A stretch of DNA of 32,000 nucleotides, taken from NCBI RefSeq assembly GCF_000016745.1, contig NC_009483.1:2220001-2252000 (forward strand). The letters run 5' to 3'. Below the pieces are notes generated by a model, which did not search any database, was not told where the DNA came from, and saw only the letters and a list, made by a program, of their open reading frames with translations. Shown here piece after piece: positions 7,503 to 25,136 of the stretch (positions are counted from its first letter, which is position 1; every line of letters begins with the position of its first letter). A program made the position numbers and the translations under genes. Origin of the DNA: Geotalea uraniireducens Rf4 (lineage in GTDB: Bacteria > Desulfobacterota > Desulfuromonadia > Geobacterales > Geobacteraceae).

Positions 7503-7571
7503 ATTTACTTGTACTATATGACGTTTTGTAAATTGTTGTTGAAATGTCGTTAATAAATGGGATTACAAACT

Positions 7572-7602: not shown

Positions 7603-7645
7603 ACTTGTTTTAAATTCAATTATTTTATGTTAAATTTATATCTCT

Positions 7646-8854
7646 ATGGCAATTTATAAGTGCAAAATAGGCTCATCAGACGGCAGAATTCTTGAAAAGG
7701 AAATTGAGGCCGTCAATACGGAAATTCTCAAGCAAAGTCTTGAAGAACAAGGTTATTTTGTATTTGAAATAAAGAAAAAACCCCTGCAGTTTCTTTTGGA
7801 AAGCGGCATTACTCGTCGTAAGGTAGACAATAAGGATCTTCTTACGTTCAATCAGGAACTGTTGGTGCTTATTAAAGCTGGACTACCCATAATACAGGCT
7901 TTAGATACAATTTTAGAGAGGGTTGAAAAAGGAAAGCTCGGAGAGATATTAAGTGAGATACGCGAAGATGTTAAGGGTGGAGCAGCGTTATCTGTTGCTT
8001 TTGAAAAACATCCCAAGGTTTTTCCGCATCTCTATATCGCATCTATTCAAGCCGGCGAAAGAACCGGCGATTTACCGCAAACCATAAGAAGATACATTGC
8101 TTTTCTCAAGAAAGCCGAGGGTTTCCGAAAAAAAGTGTTGTCTGCCTTGGTTTACCCTGCCATAGTTATTACTGTTGCTTTTGTCGCCGTTACGCTGTTG
8201 TTGGTCTACGTGGTTCCCACATTCAGCCAGGTATACGCCGATTCCGGTTCAAGCTTGCCTGTGCCAACTCAGATGCTGATTGCCTTTACGGGTATTCTCA
8301 AAAAATTCTTTTGGGCCGGTGTAGGTCTTTTTATTTTGGCAATTTTTATTTTTAGACGTTGGGCTGAGACTGAACGCGGGAGATATAGGGTTGACGCTTT
8401 GCTGATAAAGGTACCTTTTATTGGTCAGCTTCTCATTAAGTACGCCGTGTCAAGTTTTATGCGAACGTTGGCAACGGTATTGGGGAGTGGCATACCGATT
8501 ATAGAATCGTTGAAGATGTCCGTCGGAACTCTCAATAATATGGTTTTGGAACGTAAGCTGCTGGAAGCGGTCGTAAGAGTGGAAGAGGGCGTTCAATTGT
8601 CAACTGCATTGGAAGGTGCTAAAATTATGCCGCCGCTTGCGCTTCGTATGCTAGGTGTTGGAGAAACCACAGGTTCTTTGGAAGAAATGCTGGGTGATAT
8701 CTCGGATTATTTCGAAGAGGAAATCGAACGTCATCTGAACGTATTAACCACTTCAATAGAGCCGGCAATTATGATAATTATGGGTGTTGTAATCGGTGTT
8801 ATTATTGTAACTATGTATCTTCCTATATTCAAAATCGCAGGAACTGTCGGATAA
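7646..8854 (+). CDS. gspF: Type II secretion / type IV pilus inner-membrane platform protein (GspF/PilC family)
   Basis: 402 aa with the duplicated T2SSF domain architecture, three TM segments and the typical N-terminus M.IYKCK..SSDGRILEKEIEA. Confidence 0.93.
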   Translation: MAIYKCKIGSSDGRILEKEIEAVNTEILKQSLEEQGYFVFEIKKKPLQFLLESGITRRKVDNKDLLTFNQELLVLIKAGLPIIQALDTILERVEKGKLGEILSEIREDVKGGAALSVAFEKHPKVFPHLYIASIQAGERTGDLPQTIRRYIAFLKKAEGFRKKVLSALVYPAIVITVAFVAVTLLLVYVVPTFSQVYADSGSSLPVPTQMLIAFTGILKKFFWAGVGLFILAIFIFRRWAETERGRYRVDALLIKVPFIGQLLIKYAVSSFMRTLATVLGSGIPIIESLKMSVGTLNNMVLERKLLEAVVRVEEGVQLSTALEGAKIMPPLALRMLGVGETTGSLEEMLGDISDYFEEEIERHLNVLTTSIEPAIMIIMGVVIGVIIVTMYLPIFKIAGTVG

Positions 8855-10585
8855 ATGGAAAGAATGAATCAATCATTTAAAAGAAAAAAACTTGGTGACA
8901 TTCTGCTAGGCAAAAATGTCATTACACCGGAACAGCTCGCATTCGTTATCGATAAGCTGAAAACAACAGATGAGCGGTTTGGTGTGATATGTGTCAATGA
9001 TGGACTAATCACTGAAGAAGCTTTGTCCATGGCACTTGCAGAGCAATTTGGGCTTGAATATGTCGATCTTCGTGGATTTAAAATGGAGGAGGCTATCCTT
9101 AACACCCTTCCTCCTGATGCCATGCACCGTTATCACTTCATCCCTTTGGAAGTCCGGGGGGAAGCCCTGGTAGTCGCCATTTCCGATCCGACCGATGTTC
9201 TCAAGCTGGATGAAATGGAACTACTGCTTGACAGGCCGATTATTTTTAAAATTGCGGCTGAATCCGAAATAGCCATTCTGCTAAAAAAAGGAGAAGGTAC
9301 TAGTCGAGTCCTCAAAGAAGTTTCTGAGGATTTCATGCTCCAGTTGGTTACTGAGACCGAGAAGGGCGAGGAGGTCTTGTCTGTAGAAAAGATTTCCGCC
9401 GACACCAGCCCGATAATAAAGCTTGTGAACTCCACTATTCTGGATGCTCTCAACCGGCGAACGAGCGATATTCATATTGAAACCACACAGGATGGAGTTA
9501 TTATCAAATACCGGATCGACGGAGTATTATACAAAGCTACAGATCCGATAGATCTTCATTTTCAAGGTCCGATTATCTCCCGGCTTAAAGTCATGAGTGA
9601 ACTGGATATTTCTGAACGGCGCATTCCCCAGGACGGAAGGTTCAAAGTCAGAATTAATGGGAAATCCATCGATTTTCGTGTTTCTATTATGCCCAGCGCG
9701 TTCGGCGAGGATGCCGTTATACGTATTCTCGACAAGGAAAGTATTGCCACTGATCTTAAAGGATTAACGCTTGAAACCCTTGGTATGGACCCTCGGGAAA
9801 TCAAGCGCTTTCGTAAAATGATCAAAGAGCCTTACGGCATGGTGCTTGTCACGGGTCCCACCGGCTCAGGGAAAACCACCACGCTTTATGGGGCACTAAC
9901 TGAAATTCATAGTGGTGAAGAAAAGATAATCACTATCGAAGATCCTGTTGAATACGTTCTGCGCGGTATTGTTCAGATCCCGGTTAACGAAAAGAAGGGG
10001 TTGACCTTTGCTCGCGGACTTCGTTCCATATTGCGACACGACCCTGATAAGATCATGGTCGGAGAAATAAGGGACCCGGAAACTGCACAGATAGCCGTGC
10101 AATCCGCCCTAACCGGGCACCTTGTATTTACAACTGTCCATGCGAATAATGTTTTTGACGTTATCGGTCGTTTTACCCATATGGGAATCGACCCGTACAA
10201 TTTTGTCGCCTGTTTGAATTGTGTTATGGCCCAGCGACTCGTACGAAAGATCTGTCCAAAATGCAAGGTTCCAGTGACGATTTCCGATGAGAAGCTGCTG
10301 GAATCAGGAATCAGTCCCGAACGATGCCGCGGCGTAACATTTTATGATGCCAAGGGGTGCGACGACTGTAATGGCACGGGATATCGCGGTAGATCTGCTA
10401 TTGTTGAATTATTGGATCTGAACGATGAAATTCGTGAGTTGATCATAGCTAAAGCATCTGCAATACAATTGAAAAAGGCGGCCAAGGAAGCAGGTACGGT
10501 GTTTTTACGTGAATCAGCCGTAGAAAAGGTATTAGCCGGTGAAACGACATTGCGCGAGATTAATCGTGTCACCTTTGTTGAATAA
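8855..10585 (+). CDS. gspE: Secretion ATPase (GspE/PilB family) with an N-terminal T2SSE_N/MshEN-type domain
   Basis: Walker A GPTGSGKTT, Walker B IMVGEIRD, His box TGHLVFTTVHAN and tetracysteine CPKC...CDDC. The ATG abuts the gspF stop. Confidence 0.95.
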   Translation: MERMNQSFKRKKLGDILLGKNVITPEQLAFVIDKLKTTDERFGVICVNDGLITEEALSMALAEQFGLEYVDLRGFKMEEAILNTLPPDAMHRYHFIPLEVRGEALVVAISDPTDVLKLDEMELLLDRPIIFKIAAESEIAILLKKGEGTSRVLKEVSEDFMLQLVTETEKGEEVLSVEKISADTSPIIKLVNSTILDALNRRTSDIHIETTQDGVIIKYRIDGVLYKATDPIDLHFQGPIISRLKVMSELDISERRIPQDGRFKVRINGKSIDFRVSIMPSAFGEDAVIRILDKESIATDLKGLTLETLGMDPREIKRFRKMIKEPYGMVLVTGPTGSGKTTTLYGALTEIHSGEEKIITIEDPVEYVLRGIVQIPVNEKKGLTFARGLRSILRHDPDKIMVGEIRDPETAQIAVQSALTGHLVFTTVHANNVFDVIGRFTHMGIDPYNFVACLNCVMAQRLVRKICPKCKVPVTISDEKLLESGISPERCRGVTFYDAKGCDDCNGTGYRGRSAIVELLDLNDEIRELIIAKASAIQLKKAAKEAGTVFLRESAVEKVLAGETTLREINRVTFVE

Positions 10586-10617
10586 ACAATGCGTATTCGG
10601 AATTCCAGTTTCTTTGC

Positions 10618-10646
10618 TTCGAAGCGCACATCCTTTAGGGTATAAT
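10618..10646 (+). promoter_or_regulatory. Possible internal sigma70 promoter ahead of the pilM-like gene
   Basis: Perfect -10 TATAAT (10641-10646) with a weak -35 TTCGAA 17 nt upstream. The -35 overlaps the 10 bp palindrome GCTTCGAAGC (10614-10623). Confidence 0.3.
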
Positions 10647-10716
10647 TTCCCTTTAAACATAGCTTATAAAGCTGAGCTCTGCGCATCTTCCAAGCAGAAT
10701 TACCAAAAGGTGTTTA

Positions 10717-11643
10717 ATGCTATTTCCTAAAAAAGCCTTAGGTGTTGAAATATGCAGCGAAGGCGTTAAGATGGCCCTTGTTGAAGGGCGACAAAATGCT
10801 TTACGTCTGGACGCCTATACTGCCTCGTCTTTGCCTGCCGATACGATTAAATTTGCCCTTAGAGAGCAAAATGTTCTTAACCCATCGGTATTTGTCAATA
10901 TTATTCGAGAGACTTATCTACGGTTGTTGACAAAGACCAAACACGTTTCCGTTTCTTTGCCTGACACAACGGGTCGGGTGATCCTTTTGGATCTGGAAAC
11001 TCGCTTCAAGAGCAGGGATGAGGGTGCAGACATTATTCGCTGGAAGCTGAAAAAGAGCTTTCCGTTTAATATCAGTGATGCGCACCTGGATTATCAGTTG
11101 TTGGAAGAAAAAGATTCCGGCGAGATATCTCTTCTCGTGTCAATTATTGCAAGGCAGGTGGTTAATCAATACGAAGACTTGTTCGTGGAAGCCGGACTCG
11201 AACCCAATTGCATAGATTTCACAACCTTTAATCTGTACCGGCTTTTCTCGGGTCGGCTTTCAATATCTGAAAACGCCGCTTTCATGACTTTTTACGGTGG
11301 CATGGTTACCATACTTGTTTTTTATGCCGGCGTACTATCATTCTATCGATCCAAAGAAATCCCCGGCGGTACCCTTGAGATAAACCGCGCATACCGAGAA
11401 ATCAACAGCTCGCTGCTTGTTTATCAGGATATGCATCCAAGTCATACTATCAATGAAGTTTTTTGTGTCGCCACCGGTGATGATGCCGAAGCATTTCGTG
11501 CTATTGTCGGTGAGGCAACCGGTCTGGAACCGATACTCCTGGATGTCAATCGGGTTGTTTCTGCCAAAAGCGGCTTGACTGTTGACAGAGTAACGCTTCA
11601 TTCTCTGACAGCAGCGTTGGGCGCAGCCGTAAGGAATCTCTGA
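10717..11643 (+). CDS. pilM: PilM-like actin-fold assembly protein
   Basis: 308 aa. The N-terminal LGVEICSEGVKMALVEG matches the PilM/FtsA-like phosphate-1 region. The position directly upstream of PilN/O-like genes supports the call. Confidence 0.85.
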   Translation: MLFPKKALGVEICSEGVKMALVEGRQNALRLDAYTASSLPADTIKFALREQNVLNPSVFVNIIRETYLRLLTKTKHVSVSLPDTTGRVILLDLETRFKSRDEGADIIRWKLKKSFPFNISDAHLDYQLLEEKDSGEISLLVSIIARQVVNQYEDLFVEAGLEPNCIDFTTFNLYRLFSGRLSISENAAFMTFYGGMVTILVFYAGVLSFYRSKEIPGGTLEINRAYREINSSLLVYQDMHPSHTINEVFCVATGDDAEAFRAIVGEATGLEPILLDVNRVVSAKSGLTVDRVTLHSLTAALGAAVRNL

Positions 11644-12182
11644 TGCAACTGAAAATAAATCTGGCAACCAGAAGTTATATCAACACCCGGCAACTAAATC
11701 TGGCTATTGCGGTATCGATTGCGCTTTTATTGCTCTGGATGTTTTTTAATGTCAAGGATATCGCTTACAACAGTGGTGAAATGAAGCGTTTGACAACAGA
11801 TACAACGGCATTGGATACAAAATTCAAGGCAGCGAGTAAGGGTGTACCTGAAAAAGAATACAGCACGCTCTTGTTAAAAATAGGTTTTGCCAATTCGATT
11901 ATTGAAAAAAAATCCGTCAACTGGCTTGTGTTGCTTGACAATCTTGAAGCAGTCGTGCCCGAAGGGGTGGCCATTTCTGCAATTGAACCCGACCCCAAAA
12001 AACAGATTCTGAAACTCTCCGGTGCTGCAACGAATTTCAATAATGTGCGACAATTCGTTGAAAATCTGGAGTCATCGAACTTTTTCACCACCGTATTCCT
12101 TGAGAATCAGGCGGAAATCAAGGTTGGACAGAGCCAAAAGGGAATATCCTTTACCATCTCCTGTAAGGTTGATTATAAATGA
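11643..12182 (+). CDS. pilN: PilN-like bitopic assembly protein
   Basis: Starts MQLKINLATR, has one TM helix (LAIAVSIALLLLWMFF), then a coiled coil and a ferredoxin-like C-terminal domain. The start overlaps the pilM stop (TGATG). Confidence 0.8.
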   Translation: MQLKINLATRSYINTRQLNLAIAVSIALLLLWMFFNVKDIAYNSGEMKRLTTDTTALDTKFKAASKGVPEKEYSTLLLKIGFANSIIEKKSVNWLVLLDNLEAVVPEGVAISAIEPDPKKQILKLSGAATNFNNVRQFVENLESSNFFTTVFLENQAEIKVGQSQKGISFTISCKVDYK

Positions 12183-12733
12183 TGAAATATAAATTTATTC
12201 TGGAGACGATCAGGGCGTGGCGAAAACCCGCTATATTCGTGGTCGTATTGCTTTTGATAAATGTCTGTTCTTATCTATATCTTACTATCTACCAGGAACC
12301 ACGCCTCGAATCATTGCAGAATAACTGGTTTGAAAAACGGCAAAAAATTAATTCTATGGCCGTTGTGGATCCAGCTACGGTATATGAGCAGGGAACACGA
12401 GATCTGAAGACCTGGTCGTCCAGAATTCCACCTAAAAAGGATTTTGCCCGTTTTCTGGGGGATTTGTTCGAGACGGCTGCCAATAACAATCTTTCAGTTA
12501 AAAGCGTAACCTACAAGCCTAATCTTATTAAAGATGAGGGACTTCTTGCTTACTCCATCGCATTTTCAGTTTCTGGAAATTACGCGGCGGTAAAAAGTTT
12601 TATCTCAGATATTGCCCGCTCACGACAGATTGTTACGATCGATAACCTATCCCTGAATAACAGCAGTACGACACAGGAGGCTATAGAGCTCAAGCTTCAG
12701 CTTACTACGTATTTACGGGTGGAGGGGGCATGA
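12179..12733 (+). CDS. pilO: PilO/GspM-like bitopic assembly protein
   Basis: One TM helix (AIFVVVLLLINVCSYLYL) and a periplasmic alpha/beta domain. ATGA overlaps with both neighbouring genes indicate translational coupling. Confidence 0.72.
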   Translation: MMKYKFILETIRAWRKPAIFVVVLLLINVCSYLYLTIYQEPRLESLQNNWFEKRQKINSMAVVDPATVYEQGTRDLKTWSSRIPPKKDFARFLGDLFETAANNNLSVKSVTYKPNLIKDEGLLAYSIAFSVSGNYAAVKSFISDIARSRQIVTIDNLSLNNSSTTQEAIELKLQLTTYLRVEGA

Positions 12734-13359
12734 ACCGCCAAAAGATGATCCTCGCTATCCTGCTGGTGCTCCTGGTATTGGCAATAATCTATAGTTTTGC
12801 TCGCCAACCAAGACCGAAGCGGGCAAAGAGCCTCAAATATACTCCTGGAGTTGCTGCTGTCAGCAGCAGGCCAACTTCCAATGCCACCGGTGCAGTCCGA
12901 GCCGACGATAAAAAACTTCATCTTGAACTTCTTGACAAGGAGTTCCCACATTTTTCCGGTTTCCGACGTAATATATTCAAACCAATCTTTCATGAAGAGA
13001 TGAAACTTCCTTTAGCGACATCATCCCCTTCTGTCAGACCGACTTTGCCGGTGCCACCCCCTCCGCCATCGCCGTCACTTCCACCGCCACTGCCGCAACA
13101 AATTGTTGAGGCAACGCCAATCCAGCGTGATATGGCTAGGTTCACGTTCCTCGGTTTTTTGAAGAAGGATAATAAGAAAACAATTTTTCTCTCCAGTGAT
13201 AAAGAAATTTATCTCGTGAAAAAGGGAGATACCATCGCGGGTAAGTATGAGGTATCCAATCTTACCGAAGAGGCATTAACCATTCATCCGTTGATAGATG
13301 GGGGTGAGATTATTATTCCGCTGGTAGAGAACAGGGCGTTAGTTGCCCCGCGACATTAA
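12730..13359 (+). CDS. PilP/GspC-like protein with a TM anchor, poly-proline linker and C-terminal beta domain
   Basis: TM helix ILAILLVLLVLAIIY, linker PTLPVPPPPPSPSLPPPLPQQ, and C-terminal FTFLGFLKKDNKKTIFLSSDKEIYLVKKGDTIAGKYEVSNL, which resembles PilP / GspC-HR domains. The call is positional as well as motif-based. Confidence 0.55.
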   Translation: MNRQKMILAILLVLLVLAIIYSFARQPRPKRAKSLKYTPGVAAVSSRPTSNATGAVRADDKKLHLELLDKEFPHFSGFRRNIFKPIFHEEMKLPLATSSPSVRPTLPVPPPPPSPSLPPPLPQQIVEATPIQRDMARFTFLGFLKKDNKKTIFLSSDKEIYLVKKGDTIAGKYEVSNLTEEALTIHPLIDGGEIIIPLVENRALVAPRH

Positions 13360-13389
13360 AAGACGACTGCCGACTAAGGAGTGACAACC

Positions 13390-15780
13390 ATGCGTTATAT
13401 AAAACAGATGTCAACAGTGCTTTTTTGCCTGGCAATTTTATCGGGTTGTGCAGGCGGTCGCTCTGCATTCAGCAAAGCAGAAAAGCTCGAACGTGATGGG
13501 CGTCTGGATGAAGCAGTGATGAAATATGCAGAAGTTGTAGCGGCAAATCCTGGTGTAGGTGAATATCGGGCTAAGTACCTGCAATCAAGTGCTGCCGCAG
13601 CTCAAAAACATCTTCAAAAAGGGGACGATTTTGCTGCTGCTAAAAAATATGACGATGCTTTACGGGAATATCAGACGGCATTTGCACTAGATTCTTCATT
13701 GGCGCGTGCAAAGCAGGAAAGCGATCAGGTTATAAAGCTCAGAAACGCTGAAGTCTATTTTAAGGAAGGCGAGGAGTTTGAAAAAAACCGTAAGCTCAAG
13801 GAAGCTGTCCGTGCCTATCAGAAGGCGCTTGAATTCGACCAAAACAACAGTGCTGCCAAAGATGCAGTCGAGAGGCTTATAAAGAGTAAACGGCCGAAAC
13901 TCGACGGTTATGAACTAAATCTCAAATCAAACAAACCGATCACACTTAAGTTCAAGGATGCAAAAATTAAGGAAGTTTTTAATATCATTTCTCAACTTTC
14001 CGGCATCAACTTTGTTTTCGACGAGGGCGTAAAAGACCAGAATGTGTCTATTTATCTGGAGAATGCCACGTTCCAGCAGGCGCTGGAGATCATATGCGGC
14101 ATCAACAAGCTCGGAAAAAAGGTGCTGAACGAGAACACCATCATTATTTATACTAAAAACCCCGAAAAAACCAAACAGTACGAGGAGTTGTTCGTACAGA
14201 CTTTTTATCTCAATAAACTTGAGGCAAAAAAGGCGGTAAACCTTATCCGCACCATGCTGCAGGTAAGAAAGATCTACGTGAATGAAGAGATGAATGCCCT
14301 TGTAATACGCGATACACCGGATGTCATCGAGGTTGCCCAGAAGATACTGGAAGCTAATGATCTTCCCGATGCAGAAGTGGTATTGGAGGTTGAAGTGATA
14401 GAGATCTCCAAGAACAACGCAGAGAGCTTTGGTCTTGCATTGAGCAGATACGCTGTTTCCACAGCTGCAGCAGCGGAAGGCTCCTCAACGTTTCTCTCGG
14501 ATGTACTTGTGCCACCTGTTTCTACAACTCCAACAAATACAACTAACACTCCAACTTCGAATCTCCTGAATTACTTTAGATGGCGTGGCTTTAACGGGTT
14601 TCTTACGGTACCGAATGCCACGTTCAATTTTGGCAAGACCCTGTCAAACAGCGAAACATTGGCAAATCCGAAAATCAGGGTCAAAAACAGAGAAAAGGCC
14701 AAGTTTAATGTCGGTCAAAGGGTCCCCATCACAACCACCTCATCTCCGACCGGCGGCGGAGTCAGTGTCAATGTCCAGTATGTGGATGTAGGGGTGAAGT
14801 TGAACGCCGAACCGACCATTCAGCTTAATAATGAGGTTTCAATCAAGCTAAGCCTTGAGGTTAGTTCAATCCTCAGCAAGGAGAAGGTGGGGTCGACGGA
14901 TTCGTTGACAACGGTTGTGACCATCGGCACCCGCAACCTCGATACAGTTTTAAGTCTCAAGGATGGTGAGACCAGCATTATCGGTGGCCTTATGCAGGAT
15001 TTAAAAAGCAAGAACAAGCAAAAAATCGTGCTCTTGGGGGATATTCCTCTCATTGGACCGTTGTTGTCCCAAAATGATGACACAAATAATAAGTCTGAAC
15101 TGGTGTTGGCGATAACTCCGCGGATAGTACGTTCGATAACCATTCCTGAAGGGGATGTTGCTGCTTTCTGGTCCGGTAAGGAAGATGAACCATCCACATC
15201 AAAACCATATTCCTCCTTTATTCAGGAACCTGAAATATTACCTGCGCCGCCGATTTCGCCGCTCCCGGCAGGGGAGCCTCAAAAGCAGCCTGCTGCCGAA
15301 GTTCAAAAAGCACCGGCAGTTCCGCCGGCCACGGGGGCAAAGGTTGAGCCGGAGAAAGCTCCTGCCCCACGAATAACCTTGAATGTCGTTGCCCCCGCTT
15401 CAGTCAAGGTGAATGAGCAGTTTAGCGTTGGGATAAAAGTAGCCGATGCAAATAATCTATTAAACGCACCCTTGACGCTGGTTTATGATCCTTTGTTTCT
15501 GGATTTTGTCGGCTTGGCCGAGGGGGGATTTATGAAGCAGGATGGGAAAGCAACCCTTTTCCGGCCCACCATCGATAAAAATACCGGTCAAATTGCCGTT
15601 ACCCTCAACAGAGTGGGGGACGTCGGCGGGATAAGCGGGAGCGGCACCCTGCTTACTGCAACATTCAAGGCCAAGAATCAAGGGCCGGCCAGTATCGGTT
15701 TTCTCGATGTAAATTTCACCGCGCCCGGCGGAAAACCGCTGGAGGCAATTCCGTATAATGCAGTAGTGGATATTAAGTAG
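13390..15780 (+). CDS. Outer-membrane secretin lipoprotein (GspD/PilQ family) with N-terminal TPR repeats and a C-terminal cohesin module
   Basis: Track ORF begins at GTG 13381. ATG 13390 follows an AAGGAG RBS. Lipobox LSGC; TPR-like repeats at about aa 30-170; N0/Secretin_N-like domains; secretin core VVLEVEVIEIS...LGDIPLIGPLL...ELVLAITPRIV; then a P/E/K/A-rich linker and a cohesin-like module. Confidence 0.9.
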   Translation: MRYIKQMSTVLFCLAILSGCAGGRSAFSKAEKLERDGRLDEAVMKYAEVVAANPGVGEYRAKYLQSSAAAAQKHLQKGDDFAAAKKYDDALREYQTAFALDSSLARAKQESDQVIKLRNAEVYFKEGEEFEKNRKLKEAVRAYQKALEFDQNNSAAKDAVERLIKSKRPKLDGYELNLKSNKPITLKFKDAKIKEVFNIISQLSGINFVFDEGVKDQNVSIYLENATFQQALEIICGINKLGKKVLNENTIIIYTKNPEKTKQYEELFVQTFYLNKLEAKKAVNLIRTMLQVRKIYVNEEMNALVIRDTPDVIEVAQKILEANDLPDAEVVLEVEVIEISKNNAESFGLALSRYAVSTAAAAEGSSTFLSDVLVPPVSTTPTNTTNTPTSNLLNYFRWRGFNGFLTVPNATFNFGKTLSNSETLANPKIRVKNREKAKFNVGQRVPITTTSSPTGGGVSVNVQYVDVGVKLNAEPTIQLNNEVSIKLSLEVSSILSKEKVGSTDSLTTVVTIGTRNLDTVLSLKDGETSIIGGLMQDLKSKNKQKIVLLGDIPLIGPLLSQNDDTNNKSELVLAITPRIVRSITIPEGDVAAFWSGKEDEPSTSKPYSSFIQEPEILPAPPISPLPAGEPQKQPAAEVQKAPAVPPATGAKVEPEKAPAPRITLNVVAPASVKVNEQFSVGIKVADANNLLNAPLTLVYDPLFLDFVGLAEGGFMKQDGKATLFRPTIDKNTGQIAVTLNRVGDVGGISGSGTLLTATFKAKNQGPASIGFLDVNFTAPGGKPLEAIPYNAVVDIK
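15370..15777 (+). other. Cohesin-like domain at the secretin C-terminus
   Basis: RITLNVVAPASVKVNEQFSVGIKVADANNLLNAPLTLVYDPLFLDFVGLAEGGF...GSGTLLTATFKAKNQGPASIGF matches the cohesin beta-sandwich sequence pattern. Identified by eye only. Confidence 0.6.
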
Positions 15781-15802
15781 GCATCCGAATGACGGCTTGC
15801 AG

Positions 15803-16297
15803 ATGAAAAATTTGTCTAAAAACAATAGTGGTGTCAGTCTTGTAGAGCTGATCGTCACCCTGGTCATACTTTCGTTTCTGGCTGCGCTGGTCTTACCGTC
15901 TGCGCAGATGACGGCAAAAAGAAGCAAGGAACTTGAGTTACGGAGAAATCTGAGAACGATCCGTACTGCCATTGATGAGTATAAGAAATATTATGATAGG
16001 GCCGTTGAGGATAGAAAACTGATTCCGTCCTTAAACAAGTCGGGTTATCCTGAAACCTTGGAGCAACTGGTGGAAGGCTATGATTTTGGCGGGCTTACCA
16101 ATTATAAAATAAAGTTTCTCCGCAGAATCCCGGCAGACCCTTTCAACCCTCTCAAGCCCGGTGACGATAAGCCGTGGGGGCTTCGTTCCTACGTCGACAA
16201 GCCGGACAGTACGAATTGGGGGGGAGAGGATGTCTATGATGTGTATTCCCTGAGTGAAGAAACGGCCATTGACGGTTCGAAATATACGGATTGGTGA
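15803..16297 (+). CDS. Pseudopilin with an atypical prepilin N-terminus
   Basis: MKNLSKNNSG/VSLVELIVTLVILSFLAALVLPS has a G at -1, E at +5 and a hydrophobic helix. The track ORF begins at TTG 15797. Confidence 0.75.
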   Translation: MKNLSKNNSGVSLVELIVTLVILSFLAALVLPSAQMTAKRSKELELRRNLRTIRTAIDEYKKYYDRAVEDRKLIPSLNKSGYPETLEQLVEGYDFGGLTNYKIKFLRRIPADPFNPLKPGDDKPWGLRSYVDKPDSTNWGGEDVYDVYSLSEETAIDGSKYTDW

Positions 16298-16348
16298 TTA
16301 ATTCGCGGACGCGCTACCTATTGCTGCGTGCAATAAACGAGAGAATCG

Positions 16349-16765
16349 ATGCAGAAAAAGCTAAAGCAGCTGCTGAAAAAAAGGAATAAGGGTTTTACCC
16401 TGATCGAGTTGTTGATCGTCATGACCATTATCGGTATTCTTGCCGCGATATCAGTTCCCAATTACAGATGGGGCATTATCAAGGCAAAGGAAGCGGTGCT
16501 CAGGGAAGATCTTTACAATTTGCGCACAACCATCGATCAGTTTTATGCCGATCAGGGGAAATATCCTGATTCTCTTCAAGATATGGTGGACAAGAAGTAC
16601 CTGCGTGACATCCCCAAAGACCCCTTTACCAATTTGAAAGATACGTGGGTCGTTGTCACTCCTCCCCCGGCCGGTGAAGGACAGGAAGTCAAGGGATCGG
16701 TCTACGATGTGCATAGCGGTTCGGACGTGATAGGTACTACCGGAACCCCATATAATGAATGGTGA
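16349..16765 (+). CDS. gspG: Major pseudopilin, GspG/PulG-like
   Basis: MQKKLKQLLKKRNKG/FTLIELLIVMTIIGILAAISVPNY is a canonical prepilin cleavage/methylation motif. The body is GspG-like (LRTTIDQFYADQGKYPDSL..L....YL..IPKDP). Confidence 0.85.
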   Translation: MQKKLKQLLKKRNKGFTLIELLIVMTIIGILAAISVPNYRWGIIKAKEAVLREDLYNLRTTIDQFYADQGKYPDSLQDMVDKKYLRDIPKDPFTNLKDTWVVVTPPPAGEGQEVKGSVYDVHSGSDVIGTTGTPYNEW

Positions 16766-16848
16766 TATTGAACACAAAATGAGTTATGATTTGCTGGGGC
16801 ATAGGAAAAGCACTGTAGATGCCCGAAAATGAGAAAGAGGCTTGATTG

Positions 16849-17520: not shown

Positions 17521-18451
17521 GCCCGTCAAAAGGCAAAAGCTTGCGAGCGAAGGATTTACCGGCCGGACGGCATATTTTGTTTCCAGGGCTTTTCTTAATT
17601 TGCGCCAGAATATTTTCGTGAGTTTGCTGACAATCGGCACTATTTCCCTTGCCCTACTCATTATTGCGCTTTTCTTACTGGTTTATGTGAACCTGGAAGG
17701 TATGGCTGAATCGTGGAGTGAAAAAGTTCAAGTTACTGCATTTTTCGATCGAGAGCTGGCGCAGCAGGAAGTTGTGGCGCTGAAGGGAAAAGTCCAGTCG
17801 CTGAGCGGCACCGATAAGGTCGTGTATGTCTCGAAAGACGAGGCTATGAAACGTTTTCGTGCCCGTTTGAAGGGTCAGGAAACGCTTCTAGAGGGGGTAG
17901 CGCCCGAAGTTTTGCCTTCATCAATGGAGATCAGCCTCAAGAAAGAAAACCGCAGTAGTGAAATGGTAGATGCCTATGTCGCACGTTTGAAATTAGTACC
18001 CGGCATATCCGAGGTCCAGTATGGCGAGGAATGGGTCAAGCGGTTCAATACCTTCATGAACTTCATGCGTCTTGTGGGTGCACTGCTTGGCGGTTTTCTG
18101 ATTCTGGCGGGGCTGTTTATCGTATCCAATACCATAAAGCTGACCATCTATGCACGCAAGGATGAGCTTGAGGTTTTGGGACTCGTTGGCGCGACCCGAT
18201 TTTTCATAAAGGCTCCTTTTTTAATAGAAGGAATATTTCAGGGGGCTGTCGGAGCACTTCTGGCGCTGCTCATACTTACGGCCTGTTATTTCGGGTTTCT
18301 CCATAACGCCGGAAATTTCCTGTCTTTTAATCTTGCTGCGACCGGCCTCTCTTTTCTGCCGGTTTCTTATCTGGTGGCCCTGTTCTTAGGAGGAATAGGC
18401 GTGGGTTTCCTGGGCAGTCTTACATCTTTAAAACGTTTTATCACCATCTGA
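17507..18451 (+). CDS. ftsX: Cell-division permease-like protein FtsX
   Basis: ATG 17507 follows a GGAGGA RBS and overlaps the ftsE 3' end. The protein has four TM segments with a large first periplasmic loop. The track ORF extends to 17477. Confidence 0.9.
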   Translation: MSRNKPVKRQKLASEGFTGRTAYFVSRAFLNLRQNIFVSLLTIGTISLALLIIALFLLVYVNLEGMAESWSEKVQVTAFFDRELAQQEVVALKGKVQSLSGTDKVVYVSKDEAMKRFRARLKGQETLLEGVAPEVLPSSMEISLKKENRSSEMVDAYVARLKLVPGISEVQYGEEWVKRFNTFMNFMRLVGALLGGFLILAGLFIVSNTIKLTIYARKDELEVLGLVGATRFFIKAPFLIEGIFQGAVGALLALLILTACYFGFLHNAGNFLSFNLAATGLSFLPVSYLVALFLGGIGVGFLGSLTSLKRFITI

Positions 18452-18453
18452 TT

Positions 18454-19644: not shown

Positions 19645-19709
19645 TTAATATATAACCAGAAAATATTCGGAAATTTTAAAACGATAAATAACGAGCTTTT
19701 GAGGGAGGA

Positions 19710-21047: not shown

Positions 21048-21076
21048 ACCACATAGTATTTGGTTTAATTGTGGAG

Positions 21077-21105
21077 AGAGGGGGCTTATAACCCCCTCTT
21101 TTTTA
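21077..21105 (+). terminator. Rho-independent terminator after ctpA
   Basis: Stem AGAGGGGG (21077-21084) / CCCCCTCT (21092-21099), loop CTTATAA, then a T tract. Confidence 0.75.
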
Positions 21106-21133
21106 TTTGTCGGCAATTATTAAAAATAAACCA

Positions 21134-21161
21134 TTGACTAAAATGACTTTTGTAGTATAAA
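21134..21161 (+). promoter_or_regulatory. Putative sigma70 promoter for the SARP regulator gene
   Basis: TTGACT (21134-21139), a 16 nt spacer, then TATAAA (21156-21161), in an AT-rich intergenic region. Confidence 0.35.
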
Positions 21162-21255
21162 AACAAGCTTCAAAATATTGACTGAAACTATGATGTTTTA
21201 TTGGGCAATAGCAACCCGTTGAATTTTCAACGGTTGCATAAATCAACGCATTGCA

Positions 21256-21900
21256 ATGGAGCCTGCCATGGGTCGTGCAAGAGGTGTGAAAAAAACTGAA
21301 GAAATAGAAGAGCTGTCAGTTCATGCCTTTGGCGGTTTATCCATTTATTACAATGGAATACCGATCACGGTGATATGGGAAAGCCAGAAGGCACGTCTCC
21401 TTTTTTGTTATCTCCTTGTTACCTACGACCAATGGATGCATCGGGACAAGCTGATTGAGGCCTTGTGGCCGGGATGCGAACCGAGTGCAGGCGCCAATAA
21501 TTTTAAAACCACCATCAGTCGGCTGAGAAAATCTTTCAGCGGCGCACATATTGTCAATCCGGTCCTGATGCAGGGAGAAGCGGTAAGAATCAACATCGCT
21601 TCAATCAGTCTGGATTCCAGTAAGTTCGTACAGAAAGCCACGTCCGGTATCAAGTCTTTAGCGCGGGGTGAAATGAGCGAGGCGAGAAAATACCTGGAAG
21701 AAGCCCAAGACCTCTACACCGGCGAATTTCTCACAGAAGAACCTTTCAACCAGTTCATAACCGGCGCGCGCAACGAATTGAGTGAACTCCACATTTCAGT
21801 CATCAAATCTCTCGAAAAGATTTATCAGCAGGAAGGGAATACCGACGCCCTCGATGCCATTCGCATGCTTACCAAGTCCCTCATTACCCGTATTGCGTGA
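21256..21900 (+). CDS. SARP-family transcriptional activator (OmpR/PhoB-type winged helix + BTAD domain, no receiver domain)
   Basis: LSVHAFGGLSIYYNGIPI....SQKARLLFCYLLV......HRDKLIEALWP........NNFKTTISRLRK is the SARP DNA-binding pattern. It is followed by a BTAD helical region (ARKYLEEAQDLYTGEFL). ATG 21268 has the better RBS (GGAG 21258-21261). Confidence 0.8.
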   Translation: MEPAMGRARGVKKTEEIEELSVHAFGGLSIYYNGIPITVIWESQKARLLFCYLLVTYDQWMHRDKLIEALWPGCEPSAGANNFKTTISRLRKSFSGAHIVNPVLMQGEAVRINIASISLDSSKFVQKATSGIKSLARGEMSEARKYLEEAQDLYTGEFLTEEPFNQFITGARNELSELHISVIKSLEKIYQQEGNTDALDAIRMLTKSLITRIA

Positions 21901-22005
21901 TTCTGCGTATCGTTCACAAACCATTCAAGGTCGTAGTTTTTTCCATAACTGAACTTTCCTTTATTTATCGTTATCTTAGCGGTAGTTACCGTTTCCCGGC
22001 CATGC

Positions 22006-22034
22006 TTGACATTAATTTTCCGCTCAAGTAATAT
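22006..22034 (+). promoter_or_regulatory. Putative sigma70 promoter for the Big_1 lipoprotein / cohesin gene pair
   Basis: TTGACA (22006-22011), a 17 nt spacer, then TAATAT (22029-22034). Confidence 0.5.
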
Positions 22035-22052
22035 AACACCTGTTGTGTATTG

Positions 22053-22080
22053 GGAAATGCGATAACTATAGTGCATTTCC
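22053..22080. promoter_or_regulatory. Perfect 8 bp inverted repeat (operator or 5'-UTR hairpin) between the promoter and the Big_1 gene
   Basis: GGAAATGC (22053-22060), 12 nt, then GCATTTCC (22073-22080). It sits just downstream of the predicted -10 element. Confidence 0.35.
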
Positions 22081-22117
22081 TGCTTGATAATGGGTAAATA
22101 TCCTCGATTCAAAAGGA

Positions 22118-23713
22118 ATGAATACTATGAAAATGAAAACTTGTGCGTATCTGGTGCTGGCGGCTTTCATGACTGTGCTCTTTGCCGGATGCGGCGGTGG
22201 AGGGGGAAGCACTCCCGCGCCGGCACCTGCACCTGTGCAGTTTGCAATTTCGCCCTCGCAGGCAAATGTGCTCGCCGACGACACCGATTCTGCCTTGATT
22301 ACCGCCACATTCATTTCTCCCGTACCAGACGGGACCGTGGTGAATTTTTCAATCCCCGTCGGCGCCGCTAAACTGGCCGCAACATCGGCTACCACTATCG
22401 GGAACAAAGCCACTGTAAAAGTAACCAGCCTCAATAAACAAGAAAGCTTGGCCACCATTTCTGCGGCTTCGGGCGGATTTACGGCTACAACAAAGGTTAA
22501 TTTTGTCGCAAACATTGCCGTAAACACCTCAAAGATCATAGTTACCGCTGATGGCAGTGATTTTGCCACTATAACCGCTACACTGCCGGCTACAGTAGCC
22601 GATAACACGCAGATTGATTTTGTTACTTCCGGCACCGCTTCGCTCAGCTCTTCCAGCGCTTTTACTTCAAACGGAAAGGCTTCTGTTACTGTCAATAGTA
22701 CATCGTTGGGGCAGGTTACCGTATCCGCGAGTTTGCCAAATTCTGCAATAACCGGCAGTGTTGCTGTGAACTTCACCATTCAAATTCCGGTCGCTGCATC
22801 CAAGGCGACGATACTCGCTGACGGCAACGACTTCGCCACAATTACCGCCACACTCCCCGGTTCAGTACCGGTCGGCGCAACGATAAACTTTGCCGTTTCA
22901 GGCGACACTGCTGTTCTCAGTTCTCCAACCGCTCAAACCACAAGCGGAGGTTCGGCCTCGGTAACGGTTAAAAGTTCAACGCTTGGCGCGGCTGTGGTAA
23001 CGGCGACCTACTTGGGCTCTGCCGGAAGCGCTAATGTGACTTTCATACAACCACAATTCTCTGTGTCTGCGTCAAAAGGGCTGGCCTTAGCCAACAATAC
23101 GGATACCATCACTATCACGACTGCGTTTCAGGCACCAGTGCCTGCCGACGGCTCTGTCGTCAACTTCTCCACCTCCGGGGCCGCTAGTTTGAGTGCAGCA
23201 TCCGCCACCACAACCGGCGGGATTGCCACGGTGACGGTCAAATCCGCGACAGCCGGCCGTGTTACCGTCCGAGCCGATTTATCCGGCAGCAGCGCGACTG
23301 CAAGCACTGACATAAAATTCATTGCTCAGCCGACGAGTATGGCGGTAACCATCGCCATGAATCCACCAATTACATCATTAGCGGCGTTACAGTTTGTCCT
23401 TATAAACGACCCAGGCGCCACATACAATAACGGCTCTTACAAAATAATAAACCAAGCTGCTGAACAGATAACAAGTGAACCAGTTTCCAGTGGCAACAAC
23501 TTGACCCTCGGCGTATTTAGCCTTACCTTTTTCGACACACTCGCAACGCCGATAATCCAGCTTTCATACAATATCAGTAGCGGATTACCCGGCGTACAGG
23601 TCAGCCCTACAGGGATTATCGCCGGCACAGGAATGAATGCAACGCCTGTCACTCCTCCGCTTACTCCGTCTAATTTCTTGCTTGCCGTTAAGTATAATAC
23701 CGATACCTTCTAA
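22118..23713 (+). CDS. Lipoprotein with four tandem bacterial Ig-like (Big_1, invasin/intimin-type) domains and a distinct C-terminal beta-rich domain
   Basis: Signal/lipobox LFAGC followed by GGGGGSTPAPAPAP. Four repeats of about 90 aa follow the pattern ..A.G.D.ATITAT....V..GT.INF...G.A.LS...A.T...G.ASVTV.S...G...V.A. The RBS AAGGA favours ATG 22127 as the start. Confidence 0.85.
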   Translation: MNTMKMKTCAYLVLAAFMTVLFAGCGGGGGSTPAPAPAPVQFAISPSQANVLADDTDSALITATFISPVPDGTVVNFSIPVGAAKLAATSATTIGNKATVKVTSLNKQESLATISAASGGFTATTKVNFVANIAVNTSKIIVTADGSDFATITATLPATVADNTQIDFVTSGTASLSSSSAFTSNGKASVTVNSTSLGQVTVSASLPNSAITGSVAVNFTIQIPVAASKATILADGNDFATITATLPGSVPVGATINFAVSGDTAVLSSPTAQTTSGGSASVTVKSSTLGAAVVTATYLGSAGSANVTFIQPQFSVSASKGLALANNTDTITITTAFQAPVPADGSVVNFSTSGAASLSAASATTTGGIATVTVKSATAGRVTVRADLSGSSATASTDIKFIAQPTSMAVTIAMNPPITSLAALQFVLINDPGATYNNGSYKIINQAAEQITSEPVSSGNNLTLGVFSLTFFDTLATPIIQLSYNISSGLPGVQVSPTGIIAGTGMNATPVTPPLTPSNFLLAVKYNTDTF

Positions 23714-23789
23714 TCAGGTACCAACCTGAGGGCCGGGAGATTTTCCGGCTCTCTGCACAATCAACGTAAAAAAAGAAGAGAGGTTAATT

Positions 23790-25136
23790 ATGAAATTGAG
23801 AGCGATTTTTTCCACATCCATTGTTGTGCTCGCTCTGACGCTCTGTTACTCGCTCCCGGCCTTTGCCATCGCCAATGTGTCCATTTCACGTACCGGCAAC
23901 GGAGTTTATGTTGTACAGGGTACTAATCTGGAAGATATTTCCGGCATGGATGTGTCCTTCAACTATGACACAACCCTCGGCAAGCCAACGGTGACTGCAG
24001 GCGGGCTGGTGAGTGGCTCGATGTTTGCTGCGAACGCCGATAATGGATTCATCCACATAGGAATAGTTACTACCTCGGGTTCCATCAAGGGCACCGGTCA
24101 GATCGCGGTCGTGACCTTTGATAAAAAAGGTGCTGCAGGTAATGTTTTCCCTCCGAAGGTGAGACTGTATAAGGCGGATCTGGCGCAGAGTCCGGTTACG
24201 ACTGATACAGTCACGACTACATCGGACACCAAAACTACAAATCAAGATGGGAGAGGAACTCAGAATACCGGAACCGGCAACCAGAATCCCGGAACTGTCG
24301 CCAATCAGCCGATAATCGTCGGCGGCACGGTGACCTTGCCGACCGATACCCCTGCCGCAACCGAGAATAAGGCGGAGCCTGCCGTGCCTGAATATCGTGA
24401 AGAACCGAGGTCTGAGCAGCCGGTGGCGGCCAGGGAATCAAACGCCGCTCCAGAGGCAAGGCCGCAGGAGGCTCAGGCGAAAAGTCCGGAAAAGAAGCTG
24501 GAATCGCAAAAGAGCGTCTTGAATCGTTTCCGCGATTACAAGGGCGAGCTGAGTCCCAAGAGCCTCATCGCCCTTTTTGACCGGGATGAGAAGAGCGGCG
24601 TAAGGCAGGAGCCGGCATTGTTGCTGGCGGACGGCAAGACGGTCCTCAAGGTCGTTGTTCCCGGTGTTGCAGGAAAGCAGGCCCCGAACTTTGCCTTGAA
24701 GAAGGCTCGGCTCGTGTCGCTGAAAAAGGACACCGATAATAACTGGGTTGTCGAGGCTCGGCCCGAAAAAGGCGCCTATGACGCATCACTTACCATGCTC
24801 CTCGATGAATCCATGGTCGAGTTGCCACTTGTCGTTGCGCCAAAAGTTGATATCGATCTGGATAAATCCGGCAAGATCACGGAAGATGGTTTCAATCGTT
24901 TCCTCAAGGAGCGTGGTACTGAAAAAGCACCCAAATATGACCTGAACGGCGACGGACGTCGGGACTATATCGATGATTATATCTTTACGGTCAACTATCT
25001 GGCTGCCCGGAATAACAAGGCCAAGGCCAAGGAAAAGGTAACTGTAAAGGTAAAGGAAGCCAAGCCCACGGAAAGTCCGGCTGATAGTAAAGCAAAAGAG
25101 AAACCTTCTAAAAGCAAAATAAAAGAACAAAAGTAA
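23790..25136 (+). CDS. Secreted protein with an N-terminal cohesin-like domain, T/N/P/E-rich linker, central domain, dockerin-like Ca-loop segment and Lys-rich tail
   Basis: Signal peptide ending SLPAFA. Cohesin pattern NVSISRTG..VYVVQGTNLEDISGMDVSFNYDTTLGKPTV...GTGQIAVVTFDKKG. Segment DLDKSGKITEDGFNRF...DLNGDGRRDYIDDYIF. Tail KAKAKEKVTVKVKEAK...KSKIKEQK. Confidence 0.8.
   Translation: MKLRAIFSTSIVVLALTLCYSLPAFAIANVSISRTGNGVYVVQGTNLEDISGMDVSFNYDTTLGKPTVTAGGLVSGSMFAANADNGFIHIGIVTTSGSIKGTGQIAVVTFDKKGAAGNVFPPKVRLYKADLAQSPVTTDTVTTTSDTKTTNQDGRGTQNTGTGNQNPGTVANQPIIVGGTVTLPTDTPAATENKAEPAVPEYREEPRSEQPVAARESNAAPEARPQEAQAKSPEKKLESQKSVLNRFRDYKGELSPKSLIALFDRDEKSGVRQEPALLLADGKTVLKVVVPGVAGKQAPNFALKKARLVSLKKDTDNNWVVEARPEKGAYDASLTMLLDESMVELPLVVAPKVDIDLDKSGKITEDGFNRFLKERGTEKAPKYDLNGDGRRDYIDDYIFTVNYLAARNNKAKAKEKVTVKVKEAKPTESPADSKAKEKPSKSKIKEQK
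24849..25005 (+). other. Dockerin-like / EF-hand-type double calcium-loop segment
   Basis: The second loop DLNGDGRRDYID (24939-24974) fits D-x-N-x-D-G-x-x-D-x-x-D exactly and is followed by a hydrophobic helix (DYIFTVNYL). The first loop DLDKSGKITEDG (24855-24890) is degenerate. Loop spacing is about 28 aa. Confidence 0.45.

Follow-up and report, generated by a model that had tools for sequence, protein, structure and literature searches.

Programmable protein assembly is usually illustrated with cohesin-dockerin pairs, which are best known from cellulose-degrading machines; to our knowledge, almost no such pair outside cellulosomes has an assigned role. A stretch of 32,000 nucleotides of Geotalea uraniireducens Rf4 (contig NC_009483.1, positions 2,220,001 to 2,252,000 of the forward strand; the whole stretch is called the window, and positions are counted from its first nucleotide) encodes a type II secretin that carries a cohesin, and a second protein in which a cohesin is combined with a calcium-loop module resembling a dockerin. 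This raises the question of whether the two proteins are partners, and what such a pairing would do at a secretion pore. The gene for the second protein, here called X (23790..25136, plus strand, 448 amino acids, ATG start, stop codon included), lies 8 kb downstream of the secretin gene. We tentatively propose that X is a Sec-exported, two-ended connector in the cell envelope, of which the C-terminal unit would dock to the cohesin of the secretin PulQ and the N-terminal cohesin would meet a partner that varies between strains. This is a possibility, held with less than even confidence, that the evidence below favours in some respects and disfavours in others.

Gene X, its domains and its calcium-type loops

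Pfam and NCBIfam gave no match for the X sequence itself at an expectation value (E) of 1 or lower, and therefore its domains were established by means of family profiles and structure. A word-indexed search returned 84 homologues with 30-90% identity, annotated at source as 'cohesin domain-containing', 'EF-hand domain-containing' or hypothetical, of which the named sources are Geobacteraceae (Geotalea, Geomonas and Geomesophilobacter species, with Geob_2656 of Geotalea daltonii as the orthologue of X). An exhaustive profile search with the C-terminal half of X matched 763 clusters (clustered at 50% identity), of which 480 reached E ≤ 1e-30, and nearly all are 400-460 amino acids long with the unit at their C-terminus. 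This number of homologous clusters, together with ratios of nonsynonymous to synonymous substitution rates (dN/dS) of 0.09-0.45 in the folded domains, indicates that X is a real gene under selection and not a chance open reading frame (ORF). A GTDB-wide scan found 79 loci with family members, in Geobacteraceae/Desulfuromonadales and in a few metagenome-assembled genomes labelled Nitrospirota. The loci with the latter label (L004, L010, L018, L033, L042 and L077) nevertheless have genes typical of Geobacteraceae and could result from mis-binning or horizontal transfer. Many genomes contain at least two paralogues, and cohesin and dockerin-like unit are present on one polypeptide in 64 of 78 family members; complete ORFs with the immunoglobulin-like (Ig-like) and dockerin-like pair and without a cohesin also occur. 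A literature search retrieved no paper that dealt with the X family, with a secretin bearing a cohesin or with any of the locus tags tried.

The protein begins with a Sec-type signal peptide (residues 1-26, 23790..23867), read by inspection as MKLRAIFSTSIVVLALTLCYSLPAFA followed by IANV, with a basic n-region, a hydrophobic core and predicted cleavage after the motif AFA. The family consensus for this region is '..A..AFAA', and residues 2-19 are helical in the AlphaFold2 model of full-length X. An LTLC motif could suggest a lipoprotein, but this was ruled out, because the family consensus keeps the AxA site, as AFAA, and not the Cys, which makes X a substrate of signal peptidase I.

Two AlphaFold2 models were used, one of full-length X with 80 aligned relatives and one of residues 232-425 with 44. 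Residues 28-141 form nine β-strands with a predicted local distance difference test score (pLDDT) above 90. The best Foldseek match of this compact domain in the PDB is 2XDH, a non-cellulosomal cohesin of Archaeoglobus fulgidus (E 3.5e-8, template modelling score 0.69), with cellulosomal cohesins of types I and II ranking next, and the top 38 matches for X are all cohesin chains except for a CLIPPER adhesin domain and one Coh9-X-DocII chain. The cohesin family PF00963 was matched by 20 of 27 relatives (search at E ≤ 10; best 1.5e-8) and not by X itself at E ≤ 1, and it is precomputed on about half of the database homologues. When run against the PDB, the X-family profile finds the cohesins 4UMS (1.8e-6) and 2XDH (8e-5). 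The predicted structure and the family profiles, and not the sequence of X alone, thus confirm that the N-terminal domain (residues ~27-141, 23868..24212) has a genuine cohesin fold.

The cohesin is followed by a disordered linker rich in Thr, Asn, Gln, Gly, Pro and Glu (residues ~142-231, 24213..24482), with pLDDT below 50 for residues 147-223, and the predicted template modelling score (pTM) of the full-length model, 0.50, gives no confident arrangement of the domains relative to each other. In contrast, residues 232-425 are predicted as one compact unit (pLDDT 94, pTM 0.89) that runs from two short helices through a seven-strand sandwich, loop 1, a helix at 365-373, a non-helical stretch and loop 2 to a helix at 393-423. 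Pfam has no family for the central domain formed by the two short helices and the sandwich (residues ~232-350, 24483..24839). Its sandwich is Ig-like, of a remote Big_12/filamin type, with Foldseek matches to filamin, invasin and intimin at E ≥ 1.3e-3, and the domain matches 23 times in the 3377-residue protein P0164, which Pfam reads as 24 Big_12/Filamin repeats. The protein ends in a tail with 14 Lys in residues 408-448 (25011..25133), with pLDDT below 65 after residue ~420, and its length and composition differ across the family. The architecture given in the preliminary description, a cleavable signal peptide, an N-terminal cohesin-like domain, a low-complexity linker, a central domain of no known family and a Lys-rich tail, therefore stands, with an Ig-like sandwich now predicted for the central domain.

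Two calcium-type loops, spaced 28 residues apart, follow the Ig-like domain: loop 1 (DLDKSGKITEDG, residues 356-367, 24855..24890) and loop 2 (DLNGDGRRDYID, residues 384-395, 24939..24974). They had been described as EF-hand-type with the first degenerate, and this is indeed the case for loop 1, which in X has four of the five Asp/Asn ligand positions of a dockerin loop (1, 3, 5, 9 and 12) and a Gly at position 12 where the consensus has Asp. Loop 1 is fully canonical in 25 of 80 relatives, and loop 2 in 78 of 80; the latter is also always present across the 77 family members in the genome loci. D384, D388, D395 and I398 are invariant in the family, and N386, G389 and D392 are conserved at 93% or more. 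Loop 2 runs into the helix at 393-423, which holds the motif DDYIFTxNYL and is almost invariant across the 80 relatives. According to DSSP, neither loop has an entering helix in either AlphaFold2 model, and each is followed by a helix, an F-hand topology; loop 1 is preceded by a β-strand, and the segment from the 365-373 helix to loop 2 is non-helical. Both loop consensuses have Asp at position 12, not Glu. X thus departs from a canonical EF-hand pair in its missing entering helices, the Gly/Asp at position 12 and an Arg at position 8 of loop 2.

Profile comparisons point in the same direction for the family. When isolated segments of ten relatives with an intact loop 1 were searched, four exceeded the gathering score of Dockerin_1 (23.7-26.0 versus 22.9 bits), each in a single alignment over model positions 3-48 of 57, that is, over both loops, and only one passed the threshold of EF-hand_1. 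In hhalign, both loops align in register with the CelS dockerin, the sequence of which is identical to 2MTE/1DAQ, over 43 columns, although weakly (P 0.0037, probability 9%), and a presumptive calmodulin-lobe sequence aligns to one loop only.

The loops could also be structural Ca2+ sites that stabilise the Ig-like domain. X would then be a variable envelope or surface adhesin or a matrix protein, in which only the N-terminal cohesin interacts, or in which the ligand is not a protein, and its proximity to the Pul genes would be inherited gene order. We hold this account to be only slightly less probable than the connector; the F-hand topology without entering helices, which is the arrangement of dockerins, and the four relatives that pass Dockerin_1 over both loops, against one for EF-hand_1, speak against it. 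Several results nevertheless weigh against a docking role and the proposed connector. X itself scores 14.6 bits on Dockerin_1, through loop 2 only, because its loop 1 is degenerate, and it remains below the EF-hand thresholds (best EF-hand_5, 18.3 versus 25.9 bits). The Arg at position 8 of loop 2 is atypical, a hydrophobic residue being expected there. Loop 1 is near-canonical in only 10 of 24 syntenic orthologues and in none of 13 paralogues in oxidase operons, counts that are approximate since a fixed offset mis-registers a few sequences by 1-3 residues; that only loop 2 is conserved family-wide agrees with a structural role. The same can be said of the structural matches. The top 50 Foldseek matches of the C-terminal unit contain only Ig-like folds, covering the Ig-like part, and no dockerin, which is weak negative evidence as small helical modules score poorly in Foldseek, and a PDB profile search with this unit gave a dockerin at E 0.058 and an EF-hand at E 0.3, neither significant. 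Finally, the unit is compact, and the helix after loop 2 may be nearly invariant simply because it packs against the Ig-like domain.

Taken at the level of the family, the C-terminus of X appears dockerin-like, if borderline, and the X copy itself falls short of formal membership in the dockerin family. The preliminary description had gone further in stating that loop 2 matches the dockerin pattern exactly, which its position 8 and the sub-threshold score do not bear out. We read the module as dockerin-derived, with one constant calcium loop and helix built on an Ig-like domain, and at best dockerin-like in action. No other dockerin-like module was detected elsewhere in the window or, outside the X family, in any ORF of the 79 related loci, so that the count of one such module in the window holds in this family-level sense.

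The secretin PulQ and variation between strains

The secretin (13381..15780, plus strand) is a PulQ-type liposecretin which, according to Pfam, NCBIfam and its sequence, has a lipobox LSGC followed by TPR repeats, STN/Secretin_N domains, the secretin core, a Pro/Ala linker and a C-terminal cohesin. This cohesin (15394..15780) is matched by PF00963 at E 1.1e-9 over residues 672-769, with the domain reaching the end of the protein, and it is tethered by the linker of ~75 residues in place of a short S-domain tail. The cohesin hidden Markov model (HMM) of the X family matches the PulQ cohesin in the window and in 19 other loci. A secretin-borne cohesin, and with it at least two cohesin-like modules in the window, the one in X recognised by fold and family profile, were thus correctly predicted. 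A search for cohesin-bearing secretins by protein words gave 15 matches, mostly fragments. In the Geomonas orthologues of PulQ, the linker is longer and the cohesin has diverged further (33-40% identity).

The genes in the window run from Lon, a GT2 glycosyltransferase, an NHL propeller and two multihaem cytochromes to T2SSF, T2SSE, PilM/N/O-like genes and a 209-residue gene product, followed by the secretin, two pseudopilins, FtsE, FtsX, EnvC, CtpA, a SARP/BTAD-type regulator, a Big_1 lipoprotein, X and AcnB. In Geobacter sulfurreducens, GSU1784 is pulF, GSU1779 pulP, GSU1778 pulQ, GSU1777 pulG, GSU1774 ftsX and GSU1771 the SARP regulator (PMC10599522), and the order from pulF to the SARP gene in the window equals that from GSU1784 to GSU1771. 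Because both gene order and domain content are the same, the cohesin-bearing secretin is the PulQ orthologue of the system reported to export OmpB: the Geobacteraceae Pul system, with the pseudopilins PulG/OxpG, has been described (PMC3543383, citing Mehta et al. 2006) as necessary for export of the multicopper oxidase OmpB and as adjoining cell-division genes.

In solved secretins of type II secretion systems (T2SS), no part but the β-lip rim is inserted into the outer membrane, everything else being periplasmic, and the C-terminal S-domain is the binding place of periplasmic pilotin lipoproteins (PMC6532946). By homology, the PulQ cohesin would hang in the periplasm under the outer membrane, where Sec-exported X could reach it. 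The periplasmic location of secretin C-termini makes it unlikely that the PulQ cohesin acts outside the outer membrane, and the earlier suggestion that it holds proteins there is not supported by this homology (PMC6532946). The topology of PulQ leaves room for X itself to be exported beyond the periplasm.

The synteny of X with this secretin is conserved. Between 22 and 24 genome loci of the X family share the arrangement of the window, with X in a neighbourhood of pulF to pulQ, pseudopilins, ftsEX, envC and ctpA, and each of the 22 that extend far enough to include the secretin gene encodes it with a cohesin. Metagenome loci that were seeded on the PulQ cohesin have X after ctpA and the SARP gene in 4 of 4 cases with enough downstream DNA, and the complete G. 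daltonii genome has the same arrangement. A structural role of the calcium loops leaves the presence of a cohesin-bearing secretin in every syntenic locus unexplained, and a cohesin without any dockerin-type partner would be odd. The contrary evidence from gene order is that ftsE, ftsX, envC, ctpA and a terminator-like site stand between pulQ and X, or, as counted in favour of the structural account, a terminator and six housekeeping genes, that X apparently has its own promoter together with the lipoprotein gene (a consensus match), and that ~55 paralogous loci lie away from any secretin. Moreover, the housekeeping gene acnB is as syntenic as X, and hence the order of X and pulQ may be inherited and not functional. 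Co-occurrence of X with cohesin-bearing secretins, which the preliminary description had suggested measuring, was found within the clade, in a form inseparable from inherited gene order.

Variation between close strains distinguishes the two ends of X. The 106-kb metagenome contig L083 matches the window from 5336 to 22203 at 98.5% nucleotide identity, after which the match breaks. The repeat region of the lipoprotein gene upstream of X cannot be aligned at the nucleotide level, and the C-terminal domain of the lipoprotein and the spacer to X are each 79% identical. Identity then rises to ~99% (98.7%) in the signal peptide of X, falls to 74% in its cohesin and is 82% in the linker, 94% in the Ig-like domain and 98% in the dockerin-like segment, and it amounts to 98-99% in the downstream spacer and acnB. 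In L091, with flanks 96-97.5% identical, the X cohesin has no blastn match and 37% amino acid identity to that of the window, compared with nucleotide identities of 94% for the Ig-like domain, 96% for the dockerin-like segment and 97.5% for the PulQ cohesin. Across close strains, the X cohesin ranges from 37 to 92% amino acid identity while the flanks are 91-98.5% identical in nucleotides, and the dockerin-like part is ~95% identical in amino acids where the cohesin is only 37-65% identical. With flanks of 96-98.5% identity, this part keeps 96-99% nucleotide identity. The C-terminal domain of the lipoprotein has 79-82% nucleotide identity between close strains. After L083 and L091, strict co-variation of this domain with the X cohesin, as a sign that the two pair, seemed an option, which is weakened by L092, where the cohesin is 94% identical to that of the window and the lipoprotein domain 81%.

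The hypervariable cassette spans 22118-24482 of the window (compared with L083 16844-18900, L091 and L092) and comprises the Big_1 lipoprotein gene and the cohesin and linker of X. One breakpoint is located within X, between signal peptide and cohesin, and the divergence tapers through the linker to near background by the Ig-like domain. In L083, a perfect Thr-Gly repeat, which reads (TGT)n in the protein, takes the place of part of the linker (~18560-18650), and therefore the X linker is variable in length and repeats. The cohesin has a dN/dS of 0.40-0.45, not above 1, and positive selection was rejected on this basis. Its synonymous divergence (dS) is 0.54 for L083 and 1.32 for L091, and that of the Ig-like domain 0.16-0.24 for the same strains. 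The high dS of the cohesin points to exchange of old alleles by recombination, and the data indicate such recombination with relaxed constraint and not pervasive positive selection.

Judged by these sequences, the X cohesin and the lipoprotein vary in the manner of surfaces that are exposed or that determine specificity. This resemblance to exposed, antigen-like surfaces is also what a variable adhesin with structural calcium sites would give. The constant dockerin-like unit and the constant PulQ cohesin fit the pattern expected of a dockerin-to-secretin pairing, and since the dockerin-like unit is constant and the cohesin on the same protein hypervariable, a conserved partner such as PulQ is favoured over self-binding. 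The latter would mean that the dockerin-like module binds a cohesin of its own family, either head-to-tail in trans or within the molecule, and would build up chains or a mesh, be it in the periplasm or at the cell surface. We consider such self-assembly improbable. It would suit a family in which 64 of 78 members carry both modules and a long flexible linker on one polypeptide and many genomes have two or more paralogues, and the best structural match of the cohesin comes from A. fulgidus, of which a cohesin-plus-dockerin protein reportedly binds itself. Specificity partners, however, are expected to co-vary, which the two modules of X do not; in addition, complete paralogues without a cohesin keep the Ig-like and dockerin-like unit, and the full-length model shows no confident contact arrangement between the domains.

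The lipoprotein that shares the cassette (22118..23713, plus strand) has a lipobox LFAGC and, according to Pfam, four Big_1/Invasin_D3 repeats, followed by a C-terminal domain without a family, BigC (~130 amino acids, 23315..23713). A gap of 77 bp separates its gene from X. A terminator-like hairpin with a 12-bp stem and a T-run (21073..21103, plus strand) separates the pul-ftsEX-envC-ctpA block from the genes downstream, and a promoter-like site precedes the lipoprotein gene, both being consensus matches only. Judging from hairpin, promoter-like site and short gap, the lipoprotein gene and X look like a transcription unit of their own and are probably co-transcribed. The gene pair is also present in L001, L004, L006, L011 and G. 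daltonii, and a Big_1 protein is encoded upstream of X in L010. BigC is the part that is conserved directly upstream of X in the five former cases (hhalign 99.9%), preceded by four Big_1 repeats in the window and one in G. daltonii, and its closest copies end in the same motif, KYNTDTF, as in L080 (9535-9948). BigC had been regarded as a possible third cohesin. This was rejected, as the X-family cohesin HMM gave no match at E ≤ 10, hhalign a probability of 0.8%, phmmer against the secretin cohesin was negative and the PDB profile matches included no cohesins; the last homologue search for BigC found one relative only.

The other Pul genes of the window, all on the plus strand and assigned with Pfam, are those of the inner-membrane platform (7646..13359), with pulF (T2SSF), pulE (T2SSE), pilM/N/O-like genes and the 209-residue gene at the position of pulP, and two pseudopilin genes with N_methyl motifs at the PulG/OxpG positions (15797..16765). 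The SARP/BTAD-type gene (21256..21900) lies at the position of GSU1771, to which it is presumably orthologous. GSU1771 reportedly represses genes for extracellular electron transfer and biofilms, and pul genes are up in a gsu1771 mutant (PMC10599522). The SARP/BTAD gene occurs in only some syntenic loci (L006, L035, L036, L048, L085, L087 and L088) and is absent from Geomonas and G. daltonii. Directly upstream of pulF (4539-7502) are the genes for the NHL-repeat propeller and for the two multihaem c-type cytochromes, of which one contains an MtrC/MtrF-like domain. L083, L085 and L087 share the cytochrome genes at this place, and L083, at least, also has the NHL gene there, which suggests a link to the Pul cluster. 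Two antisense ORFs, 22066-22779 (minus strand, 237 amino acids) and 23886-24245 (minus strand, 119 amino acids), overlap the lipoprotein and X genes; they are without support and probably artefacts of composition, and the gene caller apparently chose such an antisense ORF in L091 (8500-9516, minus strand).

Oxidase operons and the proposed mechanism

Members of the X family are not confined to the Pul locus. In at least 13 other loci, a member is found beside SCO1 and a gene for a PBP-like protein of 568 amino acids. In L023, L027 and L037, the family member comes last, behind the gene for a large OmpB-like multicopper oxidase, which in L037 has 2258 amino acids and nine Fn3_assoc/CHB_HEX_C repeats; here, the start of the family member runs into the gene before it. 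In L067, a version that lacks the cohesin stands at the head of an operon of SCO1, FKBP, PBP and oxidase genes (Pfam), and the same SCO1 and PBP-like neighbours were found with tblastn in L068, L069, L072 and L074. L010 has a Big_1 protein, then the family member and then SCO1. These oxidase operons (L037 234-11245, L023, L027, L067 9659-17900 and L010 9047-16175) contain SCO1/SenC, an FKBP isomerase and a PBP-like protein of ~570-600 amino acids, and the family versions that head them are without a cohesin. A second gene of the T2SSE/PilB ATPase type, convergent to family members or a few kb downstream of them, was noticed in several classes of context (L001 15054-15413, L023, L037 11329-13119, L044, L064, L071 and L080 14743-15813).

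The genomic context thus ties the X family to the Pul locus on the one hand and, on the other, to operons encoding the kind of protein that Pul reportedly exports. Its place in the oxidase operons suggests an accessory role, in which such exoproteins would be positioned or retained at the secretion machinery or the envelope. The proposed fit with extracellular redox proteins gains this context, with PulQ the orthologue of the secretin of the system reported to export OmpB and paralogues in oxidase operons. These operons would also agree with a function in which the family, together with SCO1, the FKBP isomerase and the PBP-like protein, matures, folds or retains at the surface OmpB/OmpC-type oxidases independently of the secretin cohesin, and in which the copy in the window is a paralogue that landed beside ctpA. 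Despite the 13 or more loci and the operon positions at either end, we find such an oxidase accessory doubtful at best. Neither the window copy nor any of its syntenic orthologues, 24 in all, has genes for an oxidase, SCO1 or PBP in its vicinity, the oxidases and their neighbours showed no cohesin or dockerin-like module, and the loops are of the calcium type (Asp/Asn/Gly), without the His, Cys or Met that copper ligands would need.

In the connector that we tentatively propose, the C-terminal Ig-like and F-hand unit would be a 'plug' with calcium bound in loop 2. It would dock to a partner that is conserved between strains, most plausibly the PulQ cohesin on the C-terminus of each liposecretin subunit, and this docking would take place in the periplasm, just under the outer membrane. 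The variable N-terminal cohesin would be a 'socket' that is swapped between strains by recombination and that binds, or simply presents, a strain-variable partner, for which the equally variable upstream lipoprotein and exported cargo of the oxidase type are candidates. A more elaborate version, which we regard as a long shot, has the PulQ subunits display a periplasmic ring of tethered cohesins into which X plugs in a calcium-dependent manner, with the variable cohesin and the lipoprotein capturing and retaining OmpB-type oxidases. The non-cellulosomal cohesin-dockerin chain of the preliminary description hence survives in part: cohesin fold, dockerin-like unit, secretin cohesin, synteny and the constant plug with its variable socket are in its favour, and the sub-threshold score of X and the loss of the third cohesin are not.

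We know of no explanation for the retention of OmpB-type oxidases on the Geobacter surface. The analysis identifies a large family (763 clusters) from the metal-reducing Geobacter-type bacteria, the chief model for extracellular electron transfer. It singles out the cohesin on a type II secretin as a defined candidate receptor and adds genomic links to OmpB-type multicopper oxidases. Should the pairing be true, a secretion pore would recruit accessory or cargo proteins by a modular plug and socket, and new orthogonal calcium-dependent pairs, with natural allelic variants, would become available for engineering electroactive bacteria. If the ring were real as well, it would be the first cohesin-dockerin scaffold on a secretion machine and a way to position proteins of extracellular electron transfer. 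Should the pairing be false, the X family would still be a well-defined, strain-variable envelope protein worth naming.

Comparison with known systems

Compared to the type I dockerin (PF00404; CelS, 2MTE/1DAQ), X has the same two loop-plus-helix F-hands with similar spacing, Asp at position 12 in the family, a DxNxDGxxDxxD loop and both loops in register. It differs in its short first helix (9 residues) and long last helix (~30 residues), in the packing of the module on an Ig-like domain instead of a free-standing fold, in the degenerate loop 1 and in the Arg at position 8 of loop 2. The order of cohesin, Ig-like domain and dockerin-type module recalls the type II X-module-dockerin dyad (Coh9-X-DocII of CipA, 3KCP/4FL4), and here too the Ig-like domain and calcium-loop module of X are predicted to be a rigid unit. 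Foldseek aligned the whole model of X to 3kcp_A and 4fl4_L over ~430 columns, but with a root-mean-square deviation of 22-24 Å and resting on the cohesin, and these alignments were not accepted as proof of such a fold. The isolated C-terminal unit retrieves no X-module-dockerin structures in Foldseek, and its Ig-like domain resembles filamin/Big_12 and is not a demonstrated homologue of the scaffoldin X-module, so that the likeness is one of analogy and not of shown homology.

With the Geobacter Pul (OxpG) T2SS, the locus shares the gene order of GSU1784 to GSU1771, and paralogues of X occur in OmpB-like operons. X is not a recognised T2SS component, and the literature that was found mentions neither the PulQ cohesin nor the X family. 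The PulQ cohesin may further be likened to the S-domain of secretins that bind pilotins, in that a C-terminal appendage would serve as a docking site on the periplasmic side (PMC6532946). However, the appendage of PulQ is a cohesin of ~130 residues on a Pro/Ala linker of ~75 residues and not a short helix, PulQ is itself lipidated and may not need a pilotin, and X is not a lipoprotein.

The non-cellulosomal cohesin and dockerin proteins, exemplified by A. fulgidus (2XDH), resemble X in having a compact cohesin in an organism without a cellulosome. They also share, as we take it, the combination of a cohesin and a dockerin-type module on one polypeptide, which is presumably present in the archaeal protein of 2XDH. 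In X, by contrast, the dockerin-like part forms a fusion with an Ig-like domain and retains a single reliably conserved calcium loop, the cohesin is allelically hypervariable, and the family, known here from sequences and models, is almost entirely limited to Geobacteraceae/Desulfuromonadales and connected with a T2SS locus as well as with multicopper-oxidase operons. PMC9012536 cites cohesin-dockerin binding in archaea, and cohesin and dockerin proteins have been noted as candidate adhesins in electron-transferring consortia of anaerobic methanotrophic archaea and sulfate-reducing bacteria (ANME/SRB). The closest known counterparts of X are therefore these non-cellulosomal cohesin and dockerin proteins and, by analogy only, the X-module-dockerin dyad of scaffoldins.

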